This document shows, in pieces, positions 3,818-50,213 of a stretch of 50,298 nucleotides of DNA. Under the pieces are notes generated by a model. The model did no database searches and was not told the DNA's origin. It saw only the letters and a list, made by a program, of their open reading frames with translations. This stretch comes from Escherichia phage JMPW2. The stretch is taken from the sequence record NC_041873.1; one strand, 5' to 3'. The position numbers and the translations under genes are program-made. Within the stretch, counting starts at the first letter, position 1; every line of letters begins with the position of its first letter.

Positions 3818-3839
3818 CAACCAATCAGAGGAATCAGCT

Positions 3840-4048
3840 ATGGCTACACGACTCACTCAGTAGCAGATTTACGACAAGGCCTCACGCCTTCGTGAATCAC
3901 TTCGAGGTCTGACACCAAACGACCGCATTGAGATTATCGGGCACGCATTGCACGAACTCGCGTCTCAAGACGTAATCTATCATTCATGCGGAAATAAATT
4001 CTGGAACGTGACATTCGAGGTAAAGAAAGATGAGCAAAACTCATAAGT
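3840..4048 (+). pseudogene. hypothetical gene with in-frame TAG at 3861..3863 (codon 8)
   Basis: ATG 3840 preceded by box, stem-loop and CCAATCAGAGGAAT leader; after the TAG the frame stays open 61 codons with no ATG, ending 18 nt into the next gene. Confidence 0.4.
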
Positions 4049-4317
4049 TAAAAATCGCCCCTGTACATTTCATTGGTGTAATGAACGGAACCAAAACGGC
4101 AGAGTTCCGCATCAATGACCGAAACTTCCAATCTGGCGATATCCTGGAGCTATGCGAGTTCGATCGAGATGAGTTTACCGGGTGGGAAGTTCACGCCAGG
4201 GTATCCGATGTTACCGATGTGACGCCATACATCGATCGCGGGTATGACGAGCAAGAATGCGACTTCACGCAATACGTGATGTTATCAATCAAGCCTTACA
4301 GGAAGGTTAGACCATGA
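4030..4317 (+). CDS. ASCH/PUA-like (DUF3850-like) protein
   Basis: N-terminus HKLKIAPVHF...GTKTAEFRINDRNFQSGDIL resembles the ASCH-type pattern; from memory, not searched. Confidence 0.45.
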   Translation: MSKTHKLKIAPVHFIGVMNGTKTAEFRINDRNFQSGDILELCEFDRDEFTGWEVHARVSDVTDVTPYIDRGYDEQECDFTQYVMLSIKPYRKVRP

Positions 4318-4952
4318 AATTTGAATGTGTGCTTAGTAACGGATCTGGATTTAAGTACGGCAAAATCTACGAAGGCGCTCGCGTCAATTGCAACAGCTTC
4401 GTTATCACGGATGAGCGCGGTAGAAATGTTAACGTTGTCCGGCGTCACGAATACCAGGAAATTTTCCTGCCGTACGGCAATAGTTCAAAATACATCTTCC
4501 ATCGAATCGTTGATGGTGTTAAATTTAAAGACGTAATCGAAGCAATCAACCAACTTCATAATAAAGAGGTAAAATTTATGAAATTCGAATGCATCAGCGA
4601 TAACACCAAAAAATTTACTGTTGGCAAAATTTACGATGTTCCCTCTGAGCACGCTAAGCACACGGCTGTAATTACCGACGACACGGGCCGCCACCGCATT
4701 GCAACCGTAACGCACAACGGTGAAGGTCTTCGCTGGAATAGCGGCGGCACTAAGTTCGCAACGTTCGGCAAGAAGCGCAAGCGCACTTTCTGCGTCAAGG
4801 GCAATGTTGCGGCGAACAAGACCCACAACGACAAGGCGTCACAAGTTGACCGCAAGCCAGCATTGAAGTTTGAAGAGAAAGCGGATTTATCCGGCCTGGC
4901 TGTTGCGCTTGTTCTCCTGGTAGCTTCGATTTCGCTGATGTTCATCATGTAA
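4314..4952 (+). CDS. two-repeat small-beta-domain protein with C-terminal TM helix
   Basis: Internal duplication MKFECVLSNGSGFKYGKIYEG / MKFECISDNTKKFTVGKIYDV; hydrophobic C-terminus LAVALVLLVASISLMFIM. Confidence 0.6.
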   Translation: MKFECVLSNGSGFKYGKIYEGARVNCNSFVITDERGRNVNVVRRHEYQEIFLPYGNSSKYIFHRIVDGVKFKDVIEAINQLHNKEVKFMKFECISDNTKKFTVGKIYDVPSEHAKHTAVITDDTGRHRIATVTHNGEGLRWNSGGTKFATFGKKRKRTFCVKGNVAANKTHNDKASQVDRKPALKFEEKADLSGLAVALVLLVASISLMFIM

Positions 4953-5100: not shown

Positions 5101-5319
5101 ATGGCTACTATCATAACCGCAGAAGATGCGGCGCGTGACGCAGTGGAAGGAATGCGCCCAAATACCTCCAGAATCGCCCACTACTACAAGTTTGAGGTGT
5201 CGGCAGTGCAATTGGTCCACGAAATTTTAAGGCTCCCACAAGTCGATTCAGCGCGAGTAGTGACGTGCTTAAAAAATTATTTTTGCATCACTATTAAAAC
5301 GAATAGCACGAATTGCTAA
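5101..5319 (+). CDS. hypothetical protein
   Basis: Track ORF; reads through the box to a TAA. Confidence 0.4.
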   Translation: MATIITAEDAARDAVEGMRPNTSRIAHYYKFEVSAVQLVHEILRLPQVDSARVVTCLKNYFCITIKTNSTNC

Positions 5320-5352
5320 AACCTATCAAGGGGAATGCGCTATGATTCCCCT
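5303..5352 (+). promoter_or_regulatory. palindromic box plus stem-loop
   Basis: aatagcacgaattgctaaaac; hairpin aggggaat...attcccct with TATGAT. Confidence 0.6.
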
Positions 5353-5376
5353 ACACCAACAAACGAGGAAGCACGA

Positions 5377-5823
5377 ATGAAACACCTAATCTGTATTGAA
5401 GCGCCTAACGACGAGTACACTCTGCATGGCTTGGGTATGTTCAAAGGTCACTACATTACAGCTAAGATTCAAGATGACAAGCTGGATGATGGCGATCTGG
5501 AAATCACATCGAAAGAGATTAATCCGTACATCATGCAGAATCTTGGCAATAACGAATATATGGCCTACGGCTGCAATGCGGTGTATAAGCACATTAAGAT
5601 CCGCAAGCGCGTCGTGCGTGCATTCAAGAAGATTGCAATGAAGTACTGGAAGATGAGCAAGAAAGATGCCGGACGCTGGGCGCGCAACGTTGCAGATTCA
5701 TACTTCTATCGTAACGGCGAATCCTGCTACTTCCTGATCGATGAACTTATGGAAAACTACGGTGGCGACTTCAGCCAGGGTAGCTTTGATGACTGGGTCA
5801 ACTATGAGATCAGTTGCTGGTAA
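5377..5823 (+). CDS. hypothetical protein
   Basis: Internal ATG of track ORF 5335..5823 with SD acgaggaag; module upstream. Confidence 0.55.
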   Translation: MKHLICIEAPNDEYTLHGLGMFKGHYITAKIQDDKLDDGDLEITSKEINPYIMQNLGNNEYMAYGCNAVYKHIKIRKRVVRAFKKIAMKYWKMSKKDAGRWARNVADSYFYRNGESCYFLIDELMENYGGDFSQGSFDDWVNYEISCW

Positions 5824-5872
5824 TAGCACGAATTGCTAAAACTTGCTCAAGGGAATTTGTTAGAATGCCCTT
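5822..5872 (+). promoter_or_regulatory. palindromic box plus stem-loop
   Basis: aatagcacgaattgctaaaac; hairpin aaggg...ccctt with TGtTAGAAT. Confidence 0.6.
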
Positions 5873-5906
5873 CGTTGAGTTAAGCAACCAATCAGAGGAA
5901 TAAATC

Positions 5907-6437
5907 ATGGATAAAATCACAATTTGGGGCCAGACAATCAACCTGTTTCTCGGCACGCGCCGCGTGGCAATCTTTGACTTTGACGGGACACTTAGCGATG
6001 GATCTGGTCGACTTCACCTGCTGCCGACAAAGGATTTGCACTTGACTGAAAGCTGGTCTGAGTTTAACCGAGCGGCAATATTTGACGATCCTATTCAGAG
6101 CACTATTGAGGTGATGAACTCATTATTTGCTGCGGGTTATCACGTAATTATCTTAACAGGACGTAGTGATGAGGTGCGTCACGAATCAAAGTTATGGTTA
6201 AAGCGCCACGGTGCGCGATATGATTACCTGATTATGAGGCCGCATACCGACAACCGCAAAGACACGGTAATGAAAGAAGAGGCAGTGCGCGCTATCGGCA
6301 TTGATAACATTCTTGCGGCTTGGGATGACTCAGTGAATATAATAAAAAAATTCAGAGATCTAGGGATAACCACATATCAGGTTTGTGAATATGCCTGTGA
6401 TAGTCGAGAGGATTTAAATAGTCATGGTGTCGATTGA
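5907..6437 (+). CDS. HAD-family phosphatase (nucleotidase or polynucleotide 3'-phosphatase-like)
   Basis: HAD motif I FDFDGTL near N-terminus; conserved leader upstream. Confidence 0.6.
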   Translation: MDKITIWGQTINLFLGTRRVAIFDFDGTLSDGSGRLHLLPTKDLHLTESWSEFNRAAIFDDPIQSTIEVMNSLFAAGYHVIILTGRSDEVRHESKLWLKRHGARYDYLIMRPHTDNRKDTVMKEEAVRAIGIDNILAAWDDSVNIIKKFRDLGITTYQVCEYACDSREDLNSHGVD

Positions 6438-6918
6438 TAACAAATCAATGGTAAGAGAGTTATTTACTTATTCTGACGGCGTTCTGTATTGGAAGGCCAA
6501 ATCATCTAAATACAGTAGAGCTAAAATAGGAGGCGCGGCAGGAAGCAAGGATAAAGACGGATACATAATAATCAGAGTAAGAAACGAAACTAGAGGCGCT
6601 CACAGGCTTGTATGGATATACCATAATGGCAAGATACCTGATGGAATGGAGGTAGACCATATGGATGGAGACATAACAAACAATAGAATAGAAAACCTAA
6701 GATTGGTAACGAGAACCATAAATAACAGGAATCAAAAAAAGAGATCTGATAACACAACCGGAGTATCCGGTGTAACTTTCATGAAAGATAGAGGAAAGTA
6801 TAGGGCGCAAGTTAGAAACAAGAGACTCGGGCAGTTCGACACAATAGAAGAGGCCGCCAAAGCAGTAAAGGATGAGCGGGATAGATTAGGTTTATTCACA
6901 AAAAGACACGGGGTGTAA
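6424..6918 (+). CDS. HNH homing endonuclease with AP2-like domain
   Basis: Motif EVDHMDGDITNNRIENLRLVT plus TTGVSGVTFMKDRGKYRAQV; paralogous to 42263..42745 and 46320..46859. Confidence 0.8.
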   Translation: MVSIDNKSMVRELFTYSDGVLYWKAKSSKYSRAKIGGAAGSKDKDGYIIIRVRNETRGAHRLVWIYHNGKIPDGMEVDHMDGDITNNRIENLRLVTRTINNRNQKKRSDNTTGVSGVTFMKDRGKYRAQVRNKRLGQFDTIEEAAKAVKDERDRLGLFTKRHGV

Positions 6919-6920
6919 AC

Positions 6921-7493
6921 ATGAAAACAGCTATCATTTTAAACGGCGCACCTGGTGCGGGAAAGGACACTATCGGATGCATCCTGGCTGACACTTACGA
7001 TCACGTGGCGCTACGCAGCTTTAAGGCTCCGATGTTTGAGATTGCCCGAGCAATATTGGGTGAGGCTAATTTCGAATATTTCATGTTCTTGTATGAGGAC
7101 CGTCGCTATAAAGAAGAGCCAGCATCAATCCTGAACGGTAAAAGCCCGCGCCAGTTTATGATCTGGATTAGCGAGGAGGTCATCAAGCCGCAGTTCGGAA
7201 ATCGCTTCTTCGGTATGCGAGCGGAAAGCAAGGTGAAAGAGTCTCACTCCCTTTCGGTATTTACTGACGGTGGATTCAAAGACGAGATCTTGCAGATGAT
7301 TGAAGGTGATATCCAGGTAAAGCTATGTCGAATCCATCGCAACGGTTGCAACTTTGACAACGACAGCCGAGACTATATCTATCTTGACGATATGATCGGG
7401 GTCAACGGTTATCAGGAGTGCGACTTCTTTTCTGTCGAAGGCCATCCAGAAATTACCGCTCAGCACATAGCCGCCACGTTCATCAATAAATAG
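6921..7493 (+). CDS. P-loop kinase (T4 gp1-like dNMP kinase or polynucleotide kinase)
   Basis: Walker A GAPGAGKDT at N-terminus; LNGKSPRQ resembles T4 dNMP kinase. Confidence 0.6.
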   Translation: MKTAIILNGAPGAGKDTIGCILADTYDHVALRSFKAPMFEIARAILGEANFEYFMFLYEDRRYKEEPASILNGKSPRQFMIWISEEVIKPQFGNRFFGMRAESKVKESHSLSVFTDGGFKDEILQMIEGDIQVKLCRIHRNGCNFDNDSRDYIYLDDMIGVNGYQECDFFSVEGHPEITAQHIAATFINK

Positions 7494-7542
7494 CACGAAT
7501 TGCTAAAACGTCGATGGGGTGATTTGATATAGTTACCTCATC
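7489..7542 (+). promoter_or_regulatory. palindromic box plus stem-loop
   Basis: aatagcacgaattgctaaaac; hairpin gatggggt...acctcatc with TGaTATAGT. Confidence 0.6.
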
Positions 7543-7565
7543 GACAACGAAGAGAGAAAATCGAA

Positions 7566-7775
7566 ATGATGGTATCAACTGATAAGTTTTTCACCTGCAC
7601 TAAAACCTCTGAAGTATTCGAGCTTGTTCATACTGATAATGGTGATTTCATGCATGACGGTTGCGACGTTTTTATCGAAGTGAAAGAAAGCGACTATGAT
7701 GACGGAGTTTATTATAACCCGGCAGTGAACACTCAGTTCTTTACACCGATCGAAGAAGAAGGAGAAGAGGCATGA
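7566..7775 (+). CDS. hypothetical acidic protein
   Basis: Track ORF; module and SD upstream. Confidence 0.5.
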   Translation: MMVSTDKFFTCTKTSEVFELVHTDNGDFMHDGCDVFIEVKESDYDDGVYYNPAVNTQFFTPIEEEGEEA

Positions 7776-8116
7776 TTACGATTAACTTGTCAGATAAACA
7801 AGCGCGCGAACTCCTGGATACGATTGGTGAACAGCTTCACGTAAAAGGTGCTGCGGCTGAACTACTTAACCAGATCGAAAGGCAGCTTACCCCAGCATCA
7901 ACCAACCAAGCTGATTTTGCAGCCTGGAAAAGCGAGCGAATCCTGCCAAATATCATCAAGGCATGGAAGCGCAAGCATAAAAAAGAAATCAATGTTGATG
8001 ATTTATTTACCGATGAATTAAGTCCTTCAAAGGTTGCTCAATATCAGTTGCGATACATGGAGTCGGTTTGCAATCAGGTTTTAGGTGTTAATTTTTCATT
8101 TGGGAGAGGTAAATAA
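7772..8116 (+). CDS. hypothetical protein
   Basis: Track ORF; ATGA overlap with upstream gene. Confidence 0.5.
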   Translation: MITINLSDKQARELLDTIGEQLHVKGAAAELLNQIERQLTPASTNQADFAAWKSERILPNIIKAWKRKHKKEINVDDLFTDELSPSKVAQYQLRYMESVCNQVLGVNFSFGRGK

Positions 8117-8346
8117 TGTTCGGTTTAAGTGAGGCAGAATGGAACGTAGTAAAGCGCGCGGCGAAGGAATTAAATAAATTCGTTAGCGGCATGAAGAAGG
8201 AAGATCGTAAAAACGACAAGATCATGATTGACGTGATTTCTACTCACCACAAAAAGGTCGAGCTACTCATCGACCGATACAAGTTTGTCTGGACTGCCGG
8301 GTATATTGCCGGGCGCGTAGGTAACAAAGAAGGGGATTACGAATAA
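8116..8346 (+). CDS. hypothetical protein
   Basis: Track ORF; TAATG overlap. Confidence 0.5.
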   Translation: MFGLSEAEWNVVKRAAKELNKFVSGMKKEDRKNDKIMIDVISTHHKKVELLIDRYKFVWTAGYIAGRVGNKEGDYE

Positions 8347-33531: not shown

Positions 33532-33560
33532 CAAAAATCCCCGCAATGCGGGGATTTTAT
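33531..33560. terminator. bidirectional terminator
   Basis: ccccgc aat gcgggg hairpin flanked by A run and T run between convergent genes. Confidence 0.65.
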
Positions 33561-35116
33561 CATTTGGACTTCAACATTTTTATCTCTTCTTGTAACTCTT
33601 CAACTTTCTTTATTGTATCCTGTAAAGCTCTCATAGTGTCAAGCAATAAAGGAGTTGTATCAAGCTCAAGCCTTTCAACTTTTGGCCCGTTTAGCTCGTG
33701 GCTCTCATACACCCTTCTCTTAACATATAGATTGTCGATCTCTTCTATCTCCTGAGCTATAACACCTCTCCTTACCCTTTCTTGCTCATCATCGTTAAAT
33801 ATAAAGTTCCTAAATCTCATTGATTTTATGTTGTTGTATGCAATGCTTGATTCATCATCCTTTATGCCGTGCTTTATATTTCTGTCAGATGCCGGAACCT
33901 GTTGGAAACTTCCAGCCCCTTGCGGTCCAGCGTAAGATATTTGCCCTGAAGCCATAAACCTGAAATGCATTTGCAGACCAATATTGCCTGCTCCATCCCT
34001 ATCTTGAGTGCCTACTGATATTTGTGCCCTGGGCCATTCAGGATTACCCGTAGTCATCATGCCAAATGCTACGCCGCCAACGTATCCCTGACCTCTGGTG
34101 TCACACGATCCAGCAATAAGTGATTGATAGTTTTCAGCACCACTATCAGCGGTGTAAGCATTACCCTGGAAGCATGAAGCAGACCACATCTGGTTGTAAC
34201 CCATAGATGTTTTCTGGCATAAAAACTGATTAGCTCTGAATCTATTGTTAGTCTCGAAGTAGTTTGCCCCCTCATAAAATAATAAAGCCCCAGCATAACC
34301 ATTATCGCTACGTTCTTTTCTGACGTAAATACCTGGCGTAGATATTCCATCAGGTGACATAATCATCAATGATGACAATATGGACTGACTACCCCAGCTA
34401 GAACCGTCCCATGAATTCCTTCCTGCACCTATAGCGCCAGTGGTGTTAATAGTAAGAAAGTTAACAGCATCATTTTCACCTAACCCAATATTTTTTCTTG
34501 ACTCTTTTTTATCCTCAAGACCAGCTAGATTGCCATCCTTAGTTAAAAGATTTTCAGCGTCAACGCTATTTGCTGCGTCCTTTGCTTCCTGCGCACTGAC
34601 TGCTGCTGCATCTTTTGCGCTAACCGCTGCATCGCGTGCAGCGTTGGCTGCGTCACGCGCTAATTCAGCCTGATTTTGCGCAGCTTGAGAATCAGATTTC
34701 GCCTGATTCACATCAGCAACTATTTGCTCAAGTTTATTCATATCAGCAACTATTTGCTCAAGTTTATTCATATCAAGCTGATTTATCAGGTCTATAGCTG
34801 CCGCAATCTCAGTCTCTTTGCTTTGATAGTATCGAAGAGTCTCGGCGACGTTTTGAGCTAATCCGTTAACGGTTAGAGAGTCATTAAGTAGGATCACATA
34901 CTTACCGTCATCGGCAGTCTGACCATCAGTAGAGATAGCCTTTAATTCTGTATCACTAACGATATCGCTAATCACAGCTAGCTTAATTGGTTGCTCAAGG
35001 AACACGATAGTTGCACCTACGCGAATAAGAGCAAGCTGGTCTTTCCATTTTGTATCGGTTCCGTGAACCGTTCCGTCTGCATCCATTGATGCAGTACCGC
35101 GTCGATATAAAGCCAT
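33560..35116 (-). CDS. tail fibre protein with C-terminal intramolecular chaperone-like domain
   Basis: Fibre-like N-terminus MALYRRGTASMDADGTVHGTDTKW; Ala/Gln coiled region; C-terminal coiled-coil ...LQDTIKKVEELQEEIKMLKSK. Confidence 0.7.
   Translation of the reverse strand: MALYRRGTASMDADGTVHGTDTKWKDQLALIRVGATIVFLEQPIKLAVISDIVSDTELKAISTDGQTADDGKYVILLNDSLTVNGLAQNVAETLRYYQSKETEIAAAIDLINQLDMNKLEQIVADMNKLEQIVADVNQAKSDSQAAQNQAELARDAANAARDAAVSAKDAAAVSAQEAKDAANSVDAENLLTKDGNLAGLEDKKESRKNIGLGENDAVNFLTINTTGAIGAGRNSWDGSSWGSQSILSSLMIMSPDGISTPGIYVRKERSDNGYAGALLFYEGANYFETNNRFRANQFLCQKTSMGYNQMWSASCFQGNAYTADSGAENYQSLIAGSCDTRGQGYVGGVAFGMMTTGNPEWPRAQISVGTQDRDGAGNIGLQMHFRFMASGQISYAGPQGAGSFQQVPASDRNIKHGIKDDESSIAYNNIKSMRFRNFIFNDDEQERVRRGVIAQEIEEIDNLYVKRRVYESHELNGPKVERLELDTTPLLLDTMRALQDTIKKVEELQEEIKMLKSK
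34712..34771 (-). repeat. perfect 30-bp in-frame tandem duplication inside tail fibre gene
   Basis: atcagcaactatttgctcaagtttattcat x2, encoding MNKLEQIVAD twice. Confidence 0.95.
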
Positions 35117-40496: not shown

Positions 40497-40746
40497 ACGA
40501 GAGGTTTGGGATCACGCGAAGGAGTGCGGAATCTCAGACGATATAGCACTAATAGCAAAATATTTCGATATAAAGGATGTTAGCATCATCTCAAACGGAA
40601 AGATTTCATTTATGGAAGATATGCCGAGAAAAATGCATAGAGTTCCAGCCACTCCATCACTTGAGTTTTACCGCGAAGAGGGAAAGAGAATTGAGCGAGA
40701 AAGAAAATCCACAAAAAACGGCAAGTCTTCCCGGCTTAAATATTAA
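40474..40746 (+). CDS. hypothetical protein
   Basis: Track ORF; starts in an A7 tract overlapping upstream gene. Confidence 0.35.
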   Translation: MLIKKQGKREVWDHAKECGISDDIALIAKYFDIKDVSIISNGKISFMEDMPRKMHRVPATPSLEFYREEGKRIERERKSTKNGKSSRLKY

Positions 40747-40978
40747 TGCGGACGAATACCAGGCAATATGGATCGGGAAAAAGCAGGTTAAGCAAATCCC
40801 TTTCTCTGACTGGTTGCCACCTGACTTTGTTAATGTGCTTTGCACTATCGGTATTGAGCAGGAGTTGCATATAGGTTACTACTCACCTGGCCGAAACAGT
40901 ATGATGCTTGAGGTTGACGGAAAGCTCGTTGAGTTTAAATCTTCAGATCTAGGATTCTGGTTAAAGGCTGTGGCATGA
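40577..40978 (+). CDS. hypothetical protein (start uncertain, possibly TTG near 40692)
   Basis: Track ORF overlapping 40474..40746 in another frame. Confidence 0.35.
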   Translation: MLASSQTERFHLWKICREKCIEFQPLHHLSFTAKRERELSEKENPQKTASLPGLNINADEYQAIWIGKKQVKQIPFSDWLPPDFVNVLCTIGIEQELHIGYYSPGRNSMMLEVDGKLVEFKSSDLGFWLKAVA

Positions 40979-41056
40979 AACTTTATTTTGCTGTAGTATT
41001 AACACCGCTAATTTCATTTTCAGTAATGTATTTCATTATCATGTAAGGATTAAAAT

Positions 41057-42190
41057 ATGTCACAAGCTAAAATCACTACCGAGCAACTTATCGAAGAGCG
41101 CATGAGCGGCCTGACACTTCGCGAGATCGCGGAAAAGTACGGTATGCACATTCGCACTGTCGAGGCGCGTCACGCAAAACTTGCAAAAGAAGGCCACTTC
41201 CACGGCAACGAGCATGTTGCTAAGATGGTTCCGGAAGGCTTCATGGTAAAAGGCACGTCAACCATGATTGACGCGGAAGGTAACGAGAAGATTCGTTGGG
41301 TTAAGACATCAGTTGATAATGAGCGCCTTGAGGTTCTAATGGAAAAAGCGCGTGAAGCATTCTGTTCAGAGTTGCCTAAGGCTATTCCATCTGAATCACC
41401 TGACGTTAGTTTTGATGAAGACACGCTTGCGATGTATCCAGTTTTTGATTTGCACATTGGTGCTCTTGCTCACAAACATGAGTGCGGCGAAAACTACGAC
41501 ACAGCGACAGCAGAGAAGGTTATGAATGGGTTCTTTGACTACGCTGTAGATAAGGCGCCAAACTCAAAGAATGCCGTATTGGTATTGGGTGGCGATTTCC
41601 TACATTACGACTCTTTGGAGTCTAAGACTCCAGCGTCAGGCCATTACTTAGATTCTGACAGTCGTTACGCTAAGCTTGTTTATGTCGCAATCCGATCAGT
41701 ACGACGCGCAGTCTCTCGAATGCTGGAGAAGCACCAAGTTATTGATATTAAAGCAATAAGTGGGAATCACGACGAATCAGGGATGGTTTGGTTGCGCGCT
41801 GCGCTTGCTGCATTTTATGAAGATGAGCCGCGCGTAAATGTTGATGTTAGCCCTGCCGCAATGATGATGACCAGCTTTGGTAAGACCCTTATTGGATACA
41901 CTCACGGGCATCAAATGCGAAAAGCAGATACTCGACTAAGTGTTATGGCAACTGATTTTCGTAAGTTGTTTGGTCAAAGTGATTACGTTTACACGCATAG
42001 CGGTCACTGGCACAGTCAAAAGATTACAGAAACAAACTTGGGTATTGATGAGGTTCATGGTCAGCTTGGAAGTCCTGACGCATACTCTGCCAATGGCGGT
42101 TGGAGGTCTCAGCGTCAAGCTGCTGTGATTGTCTATCACAAGGAATTTGGTGAGGTTGGACGATTCATTTGTCGACCTGAAATGTTCTAA
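41057..42190 (+). CDS. HTH domain fused to calcineurin-like metallophosphoesterase
   Basis: N-terminal LTLREIAEKYGMHIRTVEAR; phosphoesterase motifs DLHIG, GGDFLH, GNHDE, HSGHWH. Confidence 0.7.
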   Translation: MSQAKITTEQLIEERMSGLTLREIAEKYGMHIRTVEARHAKLAKEGHFHGNEHVAKMVPEGFMVKGTSTMIDAEGNEKIRWVKTSVDNERLEVLMEKAREAFCSELPKAIPSESPDVSFDEDTLAMYPVFDLHIGALAHKHECGENYDTATAEKVMNGFFDYAVDKAPNSKNAVLVLGGDFLHYDSLESKTPASGHYLDSDSRYAKLVYVAIRSVRRAVSRMLEKHQVIDIKAISGNHDESGMVWLRAALAAFYEDEPRVNVDVSPAAMMMTSFGKTLIGYTHGHQMRKADTRLSVMATDFRKLFGQSDYVYTHSGHWHSQKITETNLGIDEVHGQLGSPDAYSANGGWRSQRQAAVIVYHKEFGEVGRFICRPEMF

Positions 42191-42230
42191 ATAGCACCTT
42201 TTGTTAAAACAGTACCCGCGAAAGCGGGTA
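42189..42230 (+). promoter_or_regulatory. palindromic box plus stem-loop
   Basis: aaatagcaccttttgttaaaac; hairpin tacccgcg...cgcgggta then TATTAT. Confidence 0.55.
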
Positions 42231-42262
42231 TTATTGTTTTATAGAAACAAGAGGAGATTGCA

Positions 42263-42745
42263 ATGAACTGGCACGAGCATTACGAATATAGGGATGGTGT
42301 TCTATATCACAAGGTAAAGCCATGCAGAAGGCATGATGTAAATATTGGGGATGTTGCTGGAAGGGTTGCCAAAAACGGCTATCACTATGTTGTTCACAAG
42401 AACAGGCCGTATAAGAGATCTCGAGTTATATGGGAGATGTTTAATGGTGAGATACCAGATGGTTTTGTTATAGATCATCTGAATCACAATGCCACCGATG
42501 ATAGGATCGATAACCTTGAGTGTAAGCCAAGAAGAGAGAATATGGTTAATGTTAAGTTAAGGATTGATAGCACGACCGGAGTAACTGGCGTATCAAGAAA
42601 GAGGGATAACAAGTGGAGGGCGTACATAACAATTATGGGTAAGCAGAAGTGCAAGAGCTTTGACACGTTTGAGGAAGCTTGCGCGCAGAGGATTGAATGG
42701 TCAGTAACTCATGATTTTCACCCAAATCACGGTGGAACATACTAA
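42263..42745 (+). CDS. HNH homing endonuclease with AP2-like domain
   Basis: DHLNHNATDDRIDNLECKPRRENMVN plus TTGVTGVSRKRDNKWRAYI. Confidence 0.8.
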   Translation: MNWHEHYEYRDGVLYHKVKPCRRHDVNIGDVAGRVAKNGYHYVVHKNRPYKRSRVIWEMFNGEIPDGFVIDHLNHNATDDRIDNLECKPRRENMVNVKLRIDSTTGVTGVSRKRDNKWRAYITIMGKQKCKSFDTFEEACAQRIEWSVTHDFHPNHGGTY

Positions 42746-42790
42746 TAGCACCTTTTACCTAACCCGCGCCACAGAAGTGCGGCATAGTAA
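42744..42790 (+). promoter_or_regulatory. box variant plus stem-loop
   Basis: aatagcaccttttacctaac; GC stem then CATAGT. Confidence 0.4.
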
Positions 42791-42817
42791 CCACATCGAA
42801 AACAGAGATGCTATATC

Positions 42818-42994
42818 ATGAAGATAGTCAAGTGCATCCGAAATGACTCCAAAACACTTCCATTCCGTGTAAATCAGATCTATAGTGTTGGTTATGATTT
42901 CGGTGGGGGATTATTTGAGATTTACGACGGGCGAGGTTCAGCAATCCAGACTCCTCTGAACGGTCACTACCTGGAATTTATTGAGATAGATTAA
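42818..42994 (+). CDS. small-beta-domain family protein (58 aa)
   Basis: Hand-translated MKIVKCIRNDSKTLPFRVNQIYSVGYDFGGGLFEIYDGRGSAIQ...; below track cutoff. Confidence 0.45.
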   Translation: MKIVKCIRNDSKTLPFRVNQIYSVGYDFGGGLFEIYDGRGSAIQTPLNGHYLEFIEID

Positions 42995-43112
42995 CAATAG
43001 CATTCATCACCTTACAGGCTGGCATGATTTACATGCTGGCCTTTTTGCGTTGTGTCAAATAAATTTGAAGGTTAAAATCGACTCACTTGTTCAAAAAATA
43101 TATGGTGAGATT

Positions 43113-43328
43113 ATGAAAGAGTTTTTAACGGCTGCTACGTCAAGCACTGGCGGTGCTTCGTTGGTAGGGGCGGCGACAGGGCAACTTTATATTGCTGGCG
43201 CTACATTCATTTGCTTTCTGCTTTTTGGTGCCTGGGGAGCGTACTGGAAGTATCGTGATAGCAAGGCAATTCAGGAAGCGTTAAACGATGGCGATCTAAA
43301 TAAGGCGCTTAAGATCAGGGGGAGATAA
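43113..43328 (+). CDS. holin
   Basis: About 71 aa with hydrophobic segments and charged C-terminus, directly upstream of endolysin. Confidence 0.55.
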
Positions 43329-43816
43329 TGAGTTTAAAAAATAACGTTATAGGCGCATCAATCGGGGCCGCTTTGACGTTGACACCTACCCTACTGGAAC
43401 GGATCGAAGGTATAGAATACGAGGTTTATTACGATATCGCCGGAGTCCCTACCGTATGCAGCGGAATAACCGGGCCTGACGTCATACCTGGTAAGAAATA
43501 CACTAAGCGAGAATGCGATGCATTGCTGATAAAACATATCGGCGTCGCTCAGCGATACGTTGACAAGAAGGTTAAGGTTGACATTCCGGTAACTATGCGC
43601 GCATCACTGTATAGCTTCACTTTCAACGTTGGGACTGGCGCTTTCGGATCGTCTACAATGCTTAAGCTAATCAATCAGCGCAAGCACAAAGAAGCGTGTA
43701 ATCAGTTATGGCGATGGGTATACTACTACAACCCAAAAACCAAAAAGCGCGAAGTGTCGAGAGGGATCAAGAATCGGCGCGCTGAAGAATACGCATATTG
43801 CGTTAAGGAACTATAA
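43328..43816 (+). CDS. SAR endolysin (GH24 lysozyme)
   Basis: Signal-anchor-like [17 protein letters not shown]; catalytic spacing E-x8-D-x5-T ([16 protein letters not shown]). Confidence 0.75.
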
Positions 43817-44217
43817 TGAAACTTAAGAAAACGTGCATTGCAATTACGGTTGCTGTTGGTGTGATTTCTCTATCCGGTTGTTCGACGGCATCTGCTCTGA
43901 GTGGTTTACTTTCTGACTCCCCGGATGTTACGGCGCAGGTTGGCGCTGAGAACACAAAACAACTAGCAGGAGTAACAGCAAAGGCGGATGATAAGCGAGA
44001 AGTGAAGGTGAGTGATTCAAATATTGGCAAGATTGACTCATCCGTCAAGAAGTCCGTGGAGGTGTCAACCATTCAGGCCAACACGGTTAACGCTGAAAGC
44101 ATCACAGTAACCAAATCTGGAAGCTGGTACGATCCTGTGGTTTGCTGGATTCTAGTTTTTATTGTCCTGTTGCTGTTTTATTTTTTAATTCGTAAGCACG
44201 AAAAAAAGGAGGCGTAA
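43816..44217 (+). CDS. unimolecular spanin (lipoprotein signal plus C-terminal TM)
   Basis: N-terminal lipobox LSGC and C-terminal helix VVCWILVFIVLLLFYFLI, the T1 gp11 architecture. Confidence 0.65.
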   Translation: MKLKKTCIAITVAVGVISLSGCSTASALSGLLSDSPDVTAQVGAENTKQLAGVTAKADDKREVKVSDSNIGKIDSSVKKSVEVSTIQANTVNAESITVTKSGSWYDPVVCWILVFIVLLLFYFLIRKHEKKEA

Positions 44218-44230
44218 GCCTCCTTTCTTA
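44200..44230. terminator. bidirectional terminator
   Basis: aggaggc gtaa gcctcct hairpin flanked by A7 and T-rich runs. Confidence 0.6.
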
Positions 44231-44339
44231 TTTGTACCTTTTGACGTGAAGTAGCAACTCCCCATCCTGATCGCAAAGATTGTGCTCACCGTCGTTATTG
44301 GCCCTCATCGAAGTGAGCAGTAGGCTAAGTAATCCTTGC

Positions 44340-44747
44340 TCAAATTCTTCTTTCGTAAGCTGGAGCCTTGCGCACAATTCGACGTTCCGATCTATCAATG
44401 TTTCTACGTTCGCCAAACAAGTCTTCATCACTCATTTCTCCAATGTGCATCATTTCCCACGTATATCGATTGTTGTAGCCATCAATACACATCAGCTTCA
44501 TCATTACCGGGCGCTTGATCTTTCCCTTGCACCAGTAAAATCCACCCTTGCAATCAAGATAACCCTCAGTCACGCAGCGTGCGCAAAACTCCTTAGACAG
44601 CGCGCTTGTAAATTCACGGCGAGTCATTCCGGCGGCCTTAGCAAATCGCTCACTTTCCTTGTGGGCGTATATAAATTTCGCTATGTGCTGTCGAGTGTAT
44701 TTGTCGTAACCTTCGCAGAACCTGAACAGATCTAAAAGAAGAAGCAT
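44340..44747 (-). CDS. hypothetical protein
   Basis: Track ORF; ends 112 nt before terminator, with a second open frame (44228..44431) continuing to it. Confidence 0.45.
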   Translation of the reverse strand: MLLLLDLFRFCEGYDKYTRQHIAKFIYAHKESERFAKAAGMTRREFTSALSKEFCARCVTEGYLDCKGGFYWCKGKIKRPVMMKLMCIDGYNNRYTWEMMHIGEMSDEDLFGERRNIDRSERRIVRKAPAYERRI

Positions 44748-44751
44748 ATTA

Positions 44752-46320
44752 TTAACCCATCAGTCGAGGATTGATGAAAACAATATCATCAATCCGGCAA
44801 GTGTAGTTCATCTCTTCGAGCGTGATCAGCAGGCTGTCGATTCGCTCAGCTACTTTTTGTTGACCGTTGAACGGCGTAACGTTACGGCACTTTGCAACAA
44901 TGCTATGAATAGGTGCGCGACCTTTGTTCTTCTTTGCGATCTCAGTGATAACATCAATCAGCTTACGAGATTCAGCCTCATCACCAGCATACCCGGCGGC
45001 GCTGGCAGACGACAGATAGGTTCTGGAAAGCTCATTGAAAATCATGATCGCTTCCTGCATTGTTTCAAGGTCAATCTCACGGTTGGAACGGTTCGGTGAT
45101 TCACCATCCCAGTTCTTGATTGTGTGAAGAACTGAAGCAATGCGCAAAGCGTGCTTATCGAACTTGCCGAGATGACCGCGTAGCATTGAGTGAGAGTATT
45201 TGCCCCCGGCTGCGAAATCCGGCTCCATAGCCTGGCGAGCAAGGTTTAATTCACGCATAGCATTACGGCTTACAGAGAGAACAACGTTGTCCTCCTTCAT
45301 AATGTTGTGCACAAGTCGATAATATTTACTCACCAATCCTCGATCGACTTCCTTATACAGTGCATCACCATTTTCATCGCAAAGAATACGAGTGCCTAAA
45401 AGAGGTTCCTCGCGAACCAATAGGAAACGCTCAGATACACCGATACCGCGCTGGCCTGCGTCCATGATACCCTTGATTGTTTCATCCTGCGCAATGACGC
45501 AGATCGAACCGACCGGGCAAAGAGATAAGTTATTGTCCTGATTTGAACGCGCAACCTCCATATGGTTTTTATCCCACGCCTTGAGGATAAGCTCGCTGTT
45601 TGATTTCTTATCAGAACCGCCATAAGTCAGGCCAAGCAATGTATTTATTGCCGTTGCCTCATCAGAGATTACGGAAAAGTGGCCTTGAACAGCAGCTACT
45701 TTCGCAAGACCTTCCGGTGTAGGATCTGATACCGCGAAAACAATATCAGCCATCTTCTTGATCTTCTCTTCCAGTTTTTCCTTGTCCTCGTACAGCGCCG
45801 CCGTCGTGTTACCCTTCGGATCGTTTTTGATTTCCTTCTCGATCTGACGTAGCTGACTGGTTAAACGGATACGTTCCTTTTTGCGCTCTTCATTCAGTCT
45901 CTGAATCTCTGCGCGCATAGGTGTAATCGCCGCTGAGTTAATCGCGGATTTACCTGTTGATGGTGGCTGGCTAATCACCATATAAAGAGCGGTCGGTTGT
46001 TCTTCTCCGTGATATTGCACCCAAAACTTCCCTAGCATCGCGGCTGAGATGCACCCAATGAAATGAGCGTACGCAGACGAAACAGGAAACTGTACAGACT
46101 CAGCTTTTGCTTTTGCATATTCGAATACCAGGTTATCGCCACCTAACGAAATCAGCGGGAACTTATCGTTTCCACTGTTGATATCGATCGGGTCTTGCCA
46201 AAACGAAACTGAATCCCCGTAGCTGTTTTCACGAATTGCGATCGCCACCGGATTAACTCCAGTGCTATTTGCGATCTCAATAATCTGTTGGTAATTCAGT
46301 TTTGGCTTAATATTAAACAT
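44752..46320 (-). CDS. P-loop NTPase (DUF3987-like, replication-associated)
   Basis: Walker A-like PPSTGKS; start at internal ATG (MFNIKP) with SD aaggag. Confidence 0.55.
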   Translation of the reverse strand: MFNIKPKLNYQQIIEIANSTGVNPVAIAIRENSYGDSVSFWQDPIDINSGNDKFPLISLGGDNLVFEYAKAKAESVQFPVSSAYAHFIGCISAAMLGKFWVQYHGEEQPTALYMVISQPPSTGKSAINSAAITPMRAEIQRLNEERKKERIRLTSQLRQIEKEIKNDPKGNTTAALYEDKEKLEEKIKKMADIVFAVSDPTPEGLAKVAAVQGHFSVISDEATAINTLLGLTYGGSDKKSNSELILKAWDKNHMEVARSNQDNNLSLCPVGSICVIAQDETIKGIMDAGQRGIGVSERFLLVREEPLLGTRILCDENGDALYKEVDRGLVSKYYRLVHNIMKEDNVVLSVSRNAMRELNLARQAMEPDFAAGGKYSHSMLRGHLGKFDKHALRIASVLHTIKNWDGESPNRSNREIDLETMQEAIMIFNELSRTYLSSASAAGYAGDEAESRKLIDVITEIAKKNKGRAPIHSIVAKCRNVTPFNGQQKVAERIDSLLITLEEMNYTCRIDDIVFINPRLMG

Positions 46321-46859
46321 CACAATAAACTCCTTAGTTGACGGCGTGAATGATACACCGTCAATGGTACACGCGTTTTGCAAAAAGTGCTATTCGATCC
46401 GTGATTCTCATGAAAACCGTATAGCCTTTCCGCTTCCTTCCTTGCTTTAGCCGCTGCATCCAGCGTCATGAAGGTCCCTAAGTGTTTTGTCTTTTTATTT
46501 ATGGTTATGTTTGCCGTGTATCTATTTGTTTTTTTATTCCAATACACTCCCATAACTCCTGTGTTTGATGACACTACTCCCTTGTTTCTTAGGTTGTCTT
46601 GCCTAGTTACTAGCCTGAGATTCTCAATTCTGTTATCGTCTCTTTCATGGTTTATGTGGTCTACATCCATTCCTTCTGGTATGTTTCCGTAGTGTATTTT
46701 CCATACTATTCGATGGGCGTATTCAAATACACCTCCTGGAAAACATATTGACCGATAACCTTTTTTATTAACAGTTCCGGCAAGTAGATTTCGTCTTCTT
46801 CCGATTCTCCACTCTTTCCAGTACAGTCTCCCGCTAACGTATTTCAGTTCATCTTTCAT
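46320..46859 (-). CDS. HNH homing endonuclease with AP2-like domain
   Basis: DVDHINHERDDNRIENLRLVTRQDN plus SNTGVMGVYWNKKTNRYTA; third paralog. Confidence 0.75.
   Translation of the reverse strand: MKDELKYVSGRLYWKEWRIGRRRNLLAGTVNKKGYRSICFPGGVFEYAHRIVWKIHYGNIPEGMDVDHINHERDDNRIENLRLVTRQDNLRNKGVVSSNTGVMGVYWNKKTNRYTANITINKKTKHLGTFMTLDAAAKARKEAERLYGFHENHGSNSTFCKTRVPLTVYHSRRQLRSLL
46339..46393 (-). promoter_or_regulatory. palindromic box plus stem-loop (minus strand)
   Basis: Minus-strand atagcactttttgcaaaac, hairpin gacggtg...cgccgtc with TGTATCAT, SD taaggag. Confidence 0.55.
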
Positions 46860-47272
46860 AAGTATTTACTCTCAAAGGTTGTGCCGTCTGCGATACTAAA
46901 ACCAACCTCTTCGCGGAATAAGGTCCAGCGGCAACCGTCCTCATCAAAGATGTAACCAGCTACGCCTCCAAGAGCGCGACCGCTTTCTACCTGGTAACGC
47001 TTTCCAACCTTGAATGATTTTTTCATTGGGTTGCGATGGTCAAGTCCGGTGCACTTGAGCGTCTTTGTTTTCAACTCGGTGAACTTCGCGAAGAAGATTT
47101 CATCAGATCCGTGAATATGTAATTCATCATGCTTTTCAAGTTTTAAATACTTCCCGCATTTTAACTTTACTTCACGAGTATCATCATAGCGCTCACGACC
47201 TTTATACAGATTGTTTACTTCGAATCCTGTGATTTTGTCTGCTGAAGTGCATTTAAGTTTAATGGTTTTCAT
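46856..47272 (-). CDS. small-beta-domain family protein (two repeats)
   Basis: KLKCTSADKITGFEVNNLYKG and KTLKCTGLDHRNPMKKSFKVGKRYQV repeats. Confidence 0.5.
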   Translation of the reverse strand: MKTIKLKCTSADKITGFEVNNLYKGRERYDDTREVKLKCGKYLKLEKHDELHIHGSDEIFFAKFTELKTKTLKCTGLDHRNPMKKSFKVGKRYQVESGRALGGVAGYIFDEDGCRWTLFREEVGFSIADGTTFESKYL

Positions 47273-48930: not shown

Positions 48931-48982
48931 GATGTGATGACTATACCAGCCACCCCGGGTGCGCGCTTAACAAAAGTGCTAT
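48931..48982 (-). promoter_or_regulatory. palindromic box plus -10-like element (minus strand)
   Basis: Minus-strand atagcacttttgttaa then TGgTATAGT. Confidence 0.5.
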
Positions 48983-49168
48983 TTAGAATTTTACATCTTC
49001 AACAAGCTCGACAAATTTGTACCCCAGGCGATAGGAGTCGCCGAACAACAATAACCCCATAAATTCATCTTTGGTTATCGACTCCTTACCAACTGTTCTA
49101 AGCTCTCCGTTGTGAATAACAGTATCGCCGATCTTGATTTCTGATTTATGCACTAATTTCGTTTTCAT
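48983..49168 (-). CDS. hypothetical small protein
   Basis: Track ORF; weak RBS. Confidence 0.4.
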   Translation of the reverse strand: MKTKLVHKSEIKIGDTVIHNGELRTVGKESITKDEFMGLLLFGDSYRLGYKFVELVEDVKF

Positions 49169-49183
49169 TTGTTAGCCAGTTAA

Positions 49184-49369
49184 TTAAAAGAATGCTACAT
49201 AGTTTGCAATGCCTTTTGCGTCGTCGTTAGGCATCGCATTGACAGCCGGGTCGTAACCCGCTTCTACCTTCTGCTTTGCAGATTCTTCGTTGTATCCCCA
49301 AATAACCAGGATTTTAACTACGTTTTCTTTGTTCAGGACTTTAAGGTCTTTAGTGATGCGACGTGCCAT
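49184..49369 (-). CDS. hypothetical small protein
   Basis: Internal ATG (MARRITK) with SD gaggaaaaa; module upstream. Confidence 0.45.
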   Translation of the reverse strand: MARRITKDLKVLNKENVVKILVIWGYNEESAKQKVEAGYDPAVNAMPNDDAKGIANYVAFF

Positions 49370-49390
49370 TTTGTTTTTCCTCAATCTCGT

Positions 49391-49446
49391 TTCGATGAGG
49401 TAATTATGCCAAATCACGCAGATCGAGTTTTAACAAAAAATGCTAT
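49391..49446 (-). promoter_or_regulatory. palindromic box plus stem-loop (minus strand)
   Basis: Minus-strand atagcattttttgttaaaac then gatttggcataattacctcatcg. Confidence 0.5.
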
Positions 49447-49447
49447 T

Positions 49448-50134
49448 TTAGATAGCTTTAAAAAATCCCCTGGGTGATAGAGATCGTATCAGCTTCGTTT
49501 TGGCAGACTTGCCGCCCAGCTTGTTTTGCTGTGCAGAGTACCCGTCAGGCAGGCTTACAGGTTTTCTCTCGGGCATGACAAAATCGTCAGAGGTCCACAG
49601 ACAAGTTTTCTTCGGGTAAGCATCGCGCGGCGCAATATACATCGGGAACCAGGGGTGCGCGTCATCCTCAGGAAGATAGCCGCCGTACTCCCAGGGATTG
49701 AAGGAGTGATTTGGTTTTCTCCACGCAGACGACAGGACGCTCACCGGATTCTCAATGATGTAAGTCACACCAAGCTCCTTACCAATGTTCGCAGCTATCC
49801 GAGCGGTGGCAACAGCCTTCTCCTGGAATAACGGATCACGTTCACGCTTACTGGCAAAGTGACGAGCACCACTAACAGCCAGGTCAGTGCATGGAGGGAA
49901 AGCCATAATAAAATCCGGCTTGCCATACACACCCGCGATCGCGTCACGTTCGAACTTCTCATCAATAAAGACGTTCACATACTCAATGTTCGGATGCTCC
50001 ACCCTGGCGTTGTACTTTGCATAATCTCCGTGATCGGCCCCGTCAAAGTTGAAGCACATCACCTTATGACCTTGCTTTGCCAGTTCATGACCAGCAAGAC
50101 CGGAACCGTCGAATAGTGACCAAATTAACTTCAT
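49448..50134 (-). CDS. C5-cytosine DNA methyltransferase (Dcm-like)
   Basis: Motif I LFDGSG, motif IV FPPCTDLAVSG, ENP(V)-type motif YIIENPVS; conserved leader upstream. Confidence 0.7.
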   Translation of the reverse strand: MKLIWSLFDGSGLAGHELAKQGHKVMCFNFDGADHGDYAKYNARVEHPNIEYVNVFIDEKFERDAIAGVYGKPDFIMAFPPCTDLAVSGARHFASKRERDPLFQEKAVATARIAANIGKELGVTYIIENPVSVLSSAWRKPNHSFNPWEYGGYLPEDDAHPWFPMYIAPRDAYPKKTCLWTSDDFVMPERKPVSLPDGYSAQQNKLGGKSAKTKLIRSLSPRGFFKAI

Positions 50135-50152
50135 TGCTGCTTCCTCTTCTGA

Positions 50153-50213
50153 TTGGTTGATGGCCAGAACCATACCCCGACAACCTGATCGAGTCGTTAG
50201 CAAAAAATGCTAT
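50153..50213 (-). promoter_or_regulatory. palindromic box plus leader upstream of dcm-like gene
   Basis: Minus-strand atagcattttttgctaac then CAACCAATCAGAAGAGGAAG and ATG 50134. Confidence 0.5.

Follow-up and report, generated by a model that had tools for sequence, protein, structure and literature searches.

A probable HNH-AP2 homing endonuclease gene between the always-separate phosphatase and kinase genes of a T1-like phage, with a predicted mobile cassette that includes the phosphatase 3' end

The 50,298-nucleotide (nt) genome record of Escherichia phage JMPW2 (NC_041873.1), hereafter the window, groups by its sequence with the T1-like phages (Tunavirus, Drexlerviridae) and carries three genes for proteins of the HNH-AP2 type. 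The first of them, HNH-1, is very probably a free-standing site-specific homing endonuclease gene (HEG) combining HNH and AP2 moieties and lodged in the gap between two always-separate genes, namely a Pnk-type 3'-phosphatase gene and a gp1-type deoxynucleoside monophosphate (dNMP) kinase gene; it would travel as a cassette together with the 3' end of the phosphatase gene, and no bifunctional enzyme was split by its arrival. The original prediction, made from the letters of the window, had placed an HNH gene between a phosphatase and a kinase, overlapping the phosphatase stop codon, and the open reading frames (ORFs) are indeed found so arranged, with an overlap of 14 nt. The features of the locus are as follows:

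5907..6437, plus strand: stand-alone HAD phosphatase of the Pnk-phosphatase family, 176 amino acids (aa), with the DxDGT motif at residues 24-28 (Pfam, PHROG and PDB matches)
6333..6437, plus strand: codons 143-176 of the phosphatase gene, its HNH-linked 3' segment, a diverged allele (blastn break, co-segregation)
6406..6412, plus strand: Shine-Dalgarno (SD) sequence GAGAGGA of HNH-1, inside phosphatase codons R167-E-D169 (sequence; T1 has an annotated ribosome binding site, RBS, at the equivalent position)
6424..6918, plus strand: HNH-1, free-standing HNH+AP2 homing endonuclease gene, 164 aa, equal to T1 orf63 (HNH_3, fold)
6921..7493, plus strand: stand-alone P-loop dNMP kinase, 190 aa, T4 gp1-like (PHROG, fold)

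The extent of the cassette emerges from comparison with genomes devoid of the endonuclease gene. Homology to HNH-less genomes, as traced by blastn, is lost at 6332/6333 and comes back at 6918/6919, such that a 586-bp segment of the window stands in place of 215 bp in phage SH6 that comprise the final ~105 nt of the phosphatase gene and the spacer. For the window phosphatase, identity over residues 1-142 is 94% with SH6 and 59% with the Nouzillyvirus TH21; over residues 143-176 it is 53% with SH6 and 71% with TH21. Relative to SH6, segment 6333-6437 has a nonsynonymous divergence (dN) of 0.50 and a synonymous divergence (dS) of 0.95. At informative amino acid sites, the window agrees with SH6 at 51 of 52 in the N-terminal part and with TH21 at 8 of 10 in the C-terminal part (Fisher p=1.2e-7), and the reciprocal incongruence test with TH21 as the focal genome gave p=7.5e-4. 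Four diagnostic positions, namely 143 (V/I versus P), 163 (A/T versus G/D), 167 (R versus H) and 169 (D versus H/G), split the six HNH-carrying from the 11 HNH-less alleles perfectly; R167 and D169 are specific to HNH-carrying alleles, and codons 167-169 encode the HNH-1 SD sequence. Flanking sequence is therefore seen to accompany the HEG, inasmuch as the 34 C-terminal codons segregate with the HNH gene across genera. Breakpoints and segregation delimit the predicted mobile unit as the HNH ORF together with the 3'-terminal ~105 nt of the phosphatase gene, replacing the native 3' end and spacer, and both flanking genes remain complete despite the cassette. Within Tunavirus, the HNH-carrying phosphatase alleles contain a Nouzillyvirus-type 'YQVC' found in none of the HNH-less alleles, which suggests a Nouzillyvirus-like donor, the direction of transfer being inferred. 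Between the window and TH21, amino acid identity amounts to 62% for the HNH protein and 71% for the C-terminal part of the phosphatase, compared with 44% in the kinase and 59% in the N-terminal part of the phosphatase, and between the window and Eco_BIFF dS is 0.13 for the HNH gene, 0.34 for the kinase gene and 0.48 for the phosphatase gene. Taken together, cross-genus identities, dS, dN/dS and GC content fit a functional, weakly constrained selfish gene moving horizontally with a short left flank.

HNH-1 itself is 100.0% identical to T1 orf63 over 495 nt. Its HNH core (~residues 58-102) matches HNH_3 with an E-value of 2e-22, above the curated threshold, and displays the conserved D-H...N...N arrangement, residues D78, H79, N91 and N103 being invariant across 40 homologs; a C-terminal AP2/ERF fold (~residues 112-155) is recognised by structural match. 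As such, the protein, a member of the widespread HNH+AP2 family, would unite a His-Me catalytic core like that of I-HmuI and, at the C-terminus, a DNA-binding fold of the AP2 type. Considering its intact ORF, its dN/dS of 0.185 and these four invariant residues, the endonuclease is probably functional. The GC content of the gene is 40%, versus 45% for the genome. Respective to its neighbours, the ATG of HNH-1 (6424) lies 14 nt inside the phosphatase ORF, which ends with TGA at 6435-6437, and its own stop codon (6916-6918) falls 2 nt before the kinase ATG at 6921, the SD sequence of the kinase being inside the 3' end of HNH-1. A promoter and terminator scan of 5200-7800 returned nothing above shuffle expectation. 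Since the mobile segment holds both the SD sequence and the start codon of HNH-1, the gene layout has HNH-1 translated from the early-operon mRNA through an SD sequence embedded in the phosphatase coding sequence.

The distribution of HNH-1 was surveyed in 118 phage records matching window 5300-8200. The intact gene occurs in two phages only, namely T1 (four records) and Eco_BIFF (two records), and more than 100 of the 118 records, from Tunavirus and related phages, lack it, including those of the isolated phages SH6, pSf-2 and LeonhardEuler. Phage vB_SsoS_008 (L004 1961-2480) holds a remnant from which the catalytic core and the AP2 domain are deleted and in which stop codons are present. Outside the T1 lineage, the nearest relatives (62-70% aa identity) reside in TH21 and two metagenomic Nouzillyvirus-like contigs, where the HNH gene again lies between a HAD_PNKP phosphatase gene and a kinase gene and overlaps the phosphatase 3' end by 20 nt; the other Nouzillyviruses checked are without it, and coverage of the TH21 locus stays below 80% in the 103 other matching records. 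Presence at this fixed site is sporadic among close relatives in two genera, and a single HEG lineage occupies the same phosphatase-kinase site in both. A nucleotide match to the HNH gene of phage Rtp was rejected as a same-site copy, as it sits between terminase subunits. When all three HNH sites are considered, T1 and the window are occupied at each, Eco_BIFF has HNH-1, nothing at the second site and another HNH at the third, and SH6 has none, i.e., by this comparison the three sites vary independently. Together with clean insertions into spacers, low GC content and the occupation of the same site in two genera, this independent variation bears out the view, already expressed in the original prediction, of a footprint of homing endonuclease invasion.

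In HNH-less relatives, the phosphatase and kinase genes are separate too. The genomes of SH6, DELF2, SA30RD and pSf-2 have a 108-nt spacer between them, those of LeonhardEuler and CLB_P3 an annotated 36-aa ORF, with equal spacing in Henu5_2; in more distant relatives the two genes are 1 nt apart in L017, have two or three small ORFs between them in L016 and L019, and are separated by a 49-nt spacer in ESCO41. Overall, in HNH-less members of two genera the phosphatase gene has its own stop codon, followed by a spacer of 1-120 nt or one to three small ORFs, and the kinase gene has its own start codon. The phosphatase C-terminus falls at the homologous SHGV(D/E/H) position in genomes with and without the HNH gene, and the kinase ATG is shared by the Tunavirus genomes that were aligned at the junction.

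By analogy with free-standing phage HEGs, whose known behaviour inspires each of these steps, HNH-1 would, in a mixed infection, cut or nick HNH-less genomes in their conserved allele, close to the 3' end of the phosphatase gene or in the spacer, after which recombinational repair would copy the cassette from the HNH-carrying genome, while the diverged 3' end (P143V/I, G163A/T, H167R, H/G169D) would protect carriers from self-cleavage. A fuller scenario can be put forward tentatively, at slightly less than an even chance: an active HNH-1 may have crossed a genus boundary within Drexlerviridae, from a Nouzillyvirus-type donor into the T1 lineage, by targeting the conserved HNH-less phosphatase 3' end; carriers would be immune through the same four substitutions, two of which also create the HNH-1 RBS, and the gene pair would serve as a recurrent HEG landing pad, because three HNH lineages are encountered in three positions around it.

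Of note, besides the HNH-1 lineage, another HNH gene (phrog_6254, E-value 3e-28) lies directly upstream of the kinase gene in metagenomic contig L018 (2025-2495), at the position taken by the phosphatase in relatives, and phage 50EP (L021 1428-1880) has an HNH gene with an HSCDNPCC motif upstream of the phosphatase gene. The phosphatase-kinase pair thus appears to attract HEGs, in line with PMC10448857, according to which HEGs adjoin conserved phage genes and occur at exchange boundaries.

Several points weigh against the homing account. First, the activity and target site of HNH-1 are inferred, as for every T1 HNH. Second, AP2 scores below the Pfam gathering threshold in all three HNH proteins, so that the assignment is a matter of fold; a profile of seven HNH sequences run against the PDB did not reach AP2 structures. 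Third, the vB_SsoS_008 record with the remnant also has a frameshifted kinase gene (two ORFs) and could reflect either real decay of the locus or low quality of the record. Fourth, the substrate of the phosphatase may be a polynucleotide 3'-phosphate or a mononucleotide. Finally, a 764-bp mismatch-free tract with respect to T1 (6240-7003), centred on the HNH gene, cannot by itself tell homing from ordinary recombination; its candidature as a co-conversion tract was downgraded, because the divergent block on its left is a pSf-2-like patch and other perfect tracts of 528-977 bp between the window and T1 exist elsewhere. In the three-way comparison, the window is T1-like at 5902-6082 and 6245-7064 and pSf-2-like at 6086-6239 (33 of 36 informative sites).

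Among alternative explanations, the HNH-AP2 proteins could have been domesticated and kept for the benefit of the phage, be it the exclusion of HNH-less competitors in co-infection, host DNA degradation or AP2-mediated regulation. This would be compatible with homing, and such a role is suggested by the purifying selection on HNH-1, by the three intact copies identical in the window and T1, by the translational embedding of HNH-1 in the early operon and, in PMC10448857, by documented cases of HEG domains co-opted in phage conflicts. It is nonetheless considered unlikely, in that HNH-1 is dispensed with in over 100 of the 118 matching records, including those of isolated phages, a different HNH substitutes at the third site in Eco_BIFF, and the dN/dS of HNH-1 is far above that of the neighbouring genes.

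Another explanation concerns the two flanking enzymes which, never fused, could act jointly on nucleic acid ends as a two-gene polynucleotide kinase-phosphatase (PNKP), e.g., healing tRNA or DNA that host defence nucleases have broken. The phosphatase has the corresponding affiliation: it matches Pfam HAD_PNKP (PF25109) with an E-value of 7e-17 (62 bits for a cutoff of 27.6) and PHROG 415 with an E-value of 1e-64, its nucleophile motif reads DFDGT, in keeping with the DxDxT motif of the Pnk HAD subfamily, and its PDB matches are the phosphatase domains of Pnkp1 (4XRP) and T4 Pnk (5UJ0 with an E-value of 1.5e-4, and 1LTQ). In addition, the two genes are adjacent or nearly so, with small ORFs between them at most, across Tunavirus, Nouzillyvirus and three of the four related metagenomic contigs examined, and both are under strong purifying selection, with dN/dS of 0.05-0.075 for the phosphatase and 0.007-0.017 for the kinase. 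The kinase, however, groups with dNMP kinases by PHROG and fold. With GAPGAGKDT as its Walker A motif, it matches PHROG 139, 'deoxynucleoside monophosphate kinase' (E-value 5e-46), and no Pfam family above its threshold; its closest fold is the T4 dNMP kinase (Dnk, 1DEK) rather than Pnk, i.e., it belongs by family and fold to the T4 gp1 type, and a kinase of the Pnk 5'-kinase type was not recognised in it. T4 gp1 is longer (241 aa versus 190 aa) and shares 13% sequence identity with it. The gene next to the phosphatase gene is accordingly best read as encoding a dNMP kinase. Moreover, T1 has no annotated ligase, contig L018 retains the kinase but has an HNH at the phosphatase position of relatives, and a distant kinase homolog belongs to a cluster for dNTP synthesis. 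This homolog (41% identity; L014 3001-6609) neighbours genes for an NT5C-like HAD nucleotidase, ThyX and a ribonucleotide reductase, the last being interrupted by a LAGLIDADG intein. A two-gene PNKP is thus deemed improbable; where the original prediction had left the choice between a PNKP-type enzyme and a nucleotide salvage pair, the salvage pair is the better reading.

It could also be argued that HNH-1 was ancestral at this site in Drexlerviridae and inherited vertically, its patchiness resulting from repeated loss with no horizontal homing. While the occupation of the same site in two genera and the degenerate vB_SsoS_008 remnant, as an instance of decay, would agree with such a history, it is very unlikely on several grounds: the HNH protein and the phosphatase 3' end are closer between genera (62-71% aa identity) than the constrained flanks (44-59%) despite a dN/dS 10-25 times higher for the HNH gene; the HNH-carrying C-terminus in Tunavirus has the Nouzillyvirus-type YQVC, absent from every HNH-less Tunavirus allele; the dS of the HNH gene is below that of its flanks; and dozens of precise losses, each restoring the conserved HNH-less 3' end, would be required.

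As for the idea, raised in the original prediction, that the insertion of HNH-1 split an ancestral bifunctional PNKP into two genes, it can hardly be entertained: the Pnk-type phosphatase, the P-loop kinase as the next non-HNH gene and the frequent label 'polynucleotide kinase' on the phosphatase gene in public records make it tempting, yet in two genera the HNH-less relatives possess a pair of complete ORFs separated by a spacer, the presence of the HNH gene does not shift the phosphatase C-terminus or the kinase N-terminus, and a phosphatase-kinase fusion is absent both from the 81 kinase homologs, which are 162-233 aa long, and from the 120 best-matching phosphatase homologs, of 162-237 aa. 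T4 Pnk and Pnkp1 both have their phosphatase domain at the C-terminus (the match covers residues 187-297 in the former and 197-272 in the latter), so that splitting such an enzyme would give the order kinase then phosphatase, the reverse of that in the window. The comparison with HNH-less phages, proposed in the original prediction as its own check with unfused genes as the refuting outcome, returned the same two unfused genes in SH6, pSf-2, DELF2, SA30RD, LeonhardEuler, ESCO41 and others; in none of the relatives examined, with or without the HNH gene, do kinase and phosphatase share one polypeptide or show signs of having done so. By this criterion the split is refuted, and the genes appear to have always been separate.

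HNH-1 as a free-standing HEG has two relatives elsewhere in the window:

42263..42745, plus strand: HNH-2, HNH+AP2 endonuclease gene, 160 aa, 100% identical to T1 orf15 (HNH_3 E-value 3e-19, AP2 sub-threshold)
46320..46859, minus strand: HNH-3, HNH+AP2 endonuclease gene, 179 aa, 100% identical to T1 orf8 (HNH_3 E-value 6e-22, AP2 sub-threshold)

Both are clean insertions into intergenic spacers, with the HNH-specific segments 42185-42780 and 46395-46857 standing in place of 41 bp and 4 bp in SH6, respectively. The three HNH proteins share 34-43% aa identity with one another, and their nucleotide similarity is essentially nil (one 24-nt match). The three HNH-AP2 paralogs of the original prediction are therefore retained as old members of one family and not as recent duplicates, HNH-2 and HNH-3 being, from their sequences, independent HEGs of the HNH-1 family, each in an intergenic site of its own. 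That they sit at module junctions holds for HNH-2 (between an SbcD-like exonuclease gene and the lysis cassette) and only loosely for HNH-3, which is inside a leftward early-gene cluster. At the HNH-3 site, Eco_BIFF (L012 5625-6110) has a different HNH with 40% aa identity, which looks like the replacement of one HEG by another at a single landing site. Window 40501-42184, which lies upstream of HNH-2 and takes in the SbcD-like exonuclease gene, matches SH6 and Eco_BIFF at only ~76% identity, compared with 91-95% in the regions around it; a distinct allele adjoining HNH-2 is common to T1 and the window, and tract 40639-47203, which brackets HNH-2 and HNH-3, differs from T1 at two positions. 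Just after the exonuclease gene, 60 nt (42189-42248) have, in SH6 and BIFF, an inverted counterpart of 76% identity located downstream of the spanin gene; as these 60 nt overlap the annotated rho-independent terminator of T1, this may be a shared terminator-like element.

Regarding the phosphatase gene, the pSf-2-like patch at 6086-6239 (~150 bp, 94 bp upstream of the HNH-linked segment) is 96.4% identical to HNH-less pSf-2 and ~75-80% to T1 and nine other relatives, and is read as a short gene-conversion patch. In some HNH-less phosphatase alleles of both genera, the protein is extended in frame at its C-terminus by 26 aa showing a CxxH...CxxC pattern (VCNHEPSEPLPPFGEKICIKCKELLK), as the result of a 78-nt indel relative to SH6; variants of 236-237 aa were also met in the protein search, and the extension could be a zinc-knuckle tail:

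L003, L007, L010 2108-2719; L022 1431-2048: phosphatase alleles with the 26-aa extension, at a junction equivalent to window ~6434, with no counterpart in the window

The relation to coliphage T1 (genome AY216660, PMID 14972552) is a close one, with 94.9% identity across ~46.7 kb aligned and 93.5% for 5300-8200. Window 5907-6437 and 6921-7493 are the homologs of T1 orf64 and orf62, and all three window HNH genes are 100% identical to T1 orf63, orf15 and orf8 (AAP49937, AAP49984, AAP49991), in mismatch-free runs; these are annotated in T1 as HNH endonucleases, with the same places, neighbours and overlaps. While the HNH genes show no difference, the surrounding window genome is another mosaic, as illustrated by the overall identity and the pSf-2-like patch. 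The "three homing HNH endonucleases" of T1 are already recorded by Hamdi et al., as is their absence from relatives such as SH6 and pSf-2; orf63, orf15 and orf8 as homing endonucleases are thus known and the gene itself is not new, the novelty being confined to the cassette boundaries and the candidate immunity residues. Three regions of the window, i.e., ~3825-4565, 33559-34802 and 48948-50191, have no blastn alignment to T1. The ORF at 4314-4952 (212 aa) is a gene of the SH6/pSf-2 type, not T1 orf68, with an internal repeat apparently present; a suspected likeness to the ORF at 46856-47272 was dropped as a weak match (E-value 0.04).

Amongst known systems, I-HmuI is intron-encoded and its DNA-binding half is not known to contain an AP2 domain. 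This nicking homing endonuclease of the HNH_3 type (PDB 1U3E), from Bacillus phage SPO1, differs in these respects from HNH-1, which is free-standing and has an AP2 fold. The free-standing HEGs of T-even phages, i.e., the seg and mob genes known for intronless homing and flanking-marker co-conversion, resemble the T1-type HNH genes in being intergenic and sporadic, in the co-transfer of flanks and in HEG replacement at one site, the T1-type genes being known here from sequence. The seg genes encode GIY-YIG enzymes and the mob genes HNH enzymes. A HEG family combining HNH and AP2 has been described (Magnani et al. 2004, as cited in PMC10448857). According to the latter, the 'IPA-HNH' HEGs of phage ICP1 are organised like HNH-1, with an N-terminal HNH, a C-terminal AP2 and a free-standing position beside conserved genes, although the ICP1 HNH domains are divergent and missed by Pfam HNH_3, on which T1-type proteins score strongly. 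As for T4 Pnk (1LTQ, 5UJ0), it belongs to the same HAD subfamily as the window phosphatase (PF25109) but carries both activities on one polypeptide, the kinase N-terminal and the phosphatase C-terminal, whereas the window phosphatase stands alone with a kinase of another family downstream.

Altogether, the analysis corrects a tempting misreading, in that the HNH gene between the phosphatase and dNMP kinase genes of T1-like phages appears as a passenger, not a gene-splitter, and the T1-like gene labelled 'polynucleotide kinase' would encode a phosphatase only. The phosphatase-HNH region is flagged as unsuitable for phylogenetic markers. Beyond such housekeeping the significance is small; the modestly useful product is a testable prediction, for a homing endonuclease of T1, of the boundaries of its cassette and of four candidate immunity residues.

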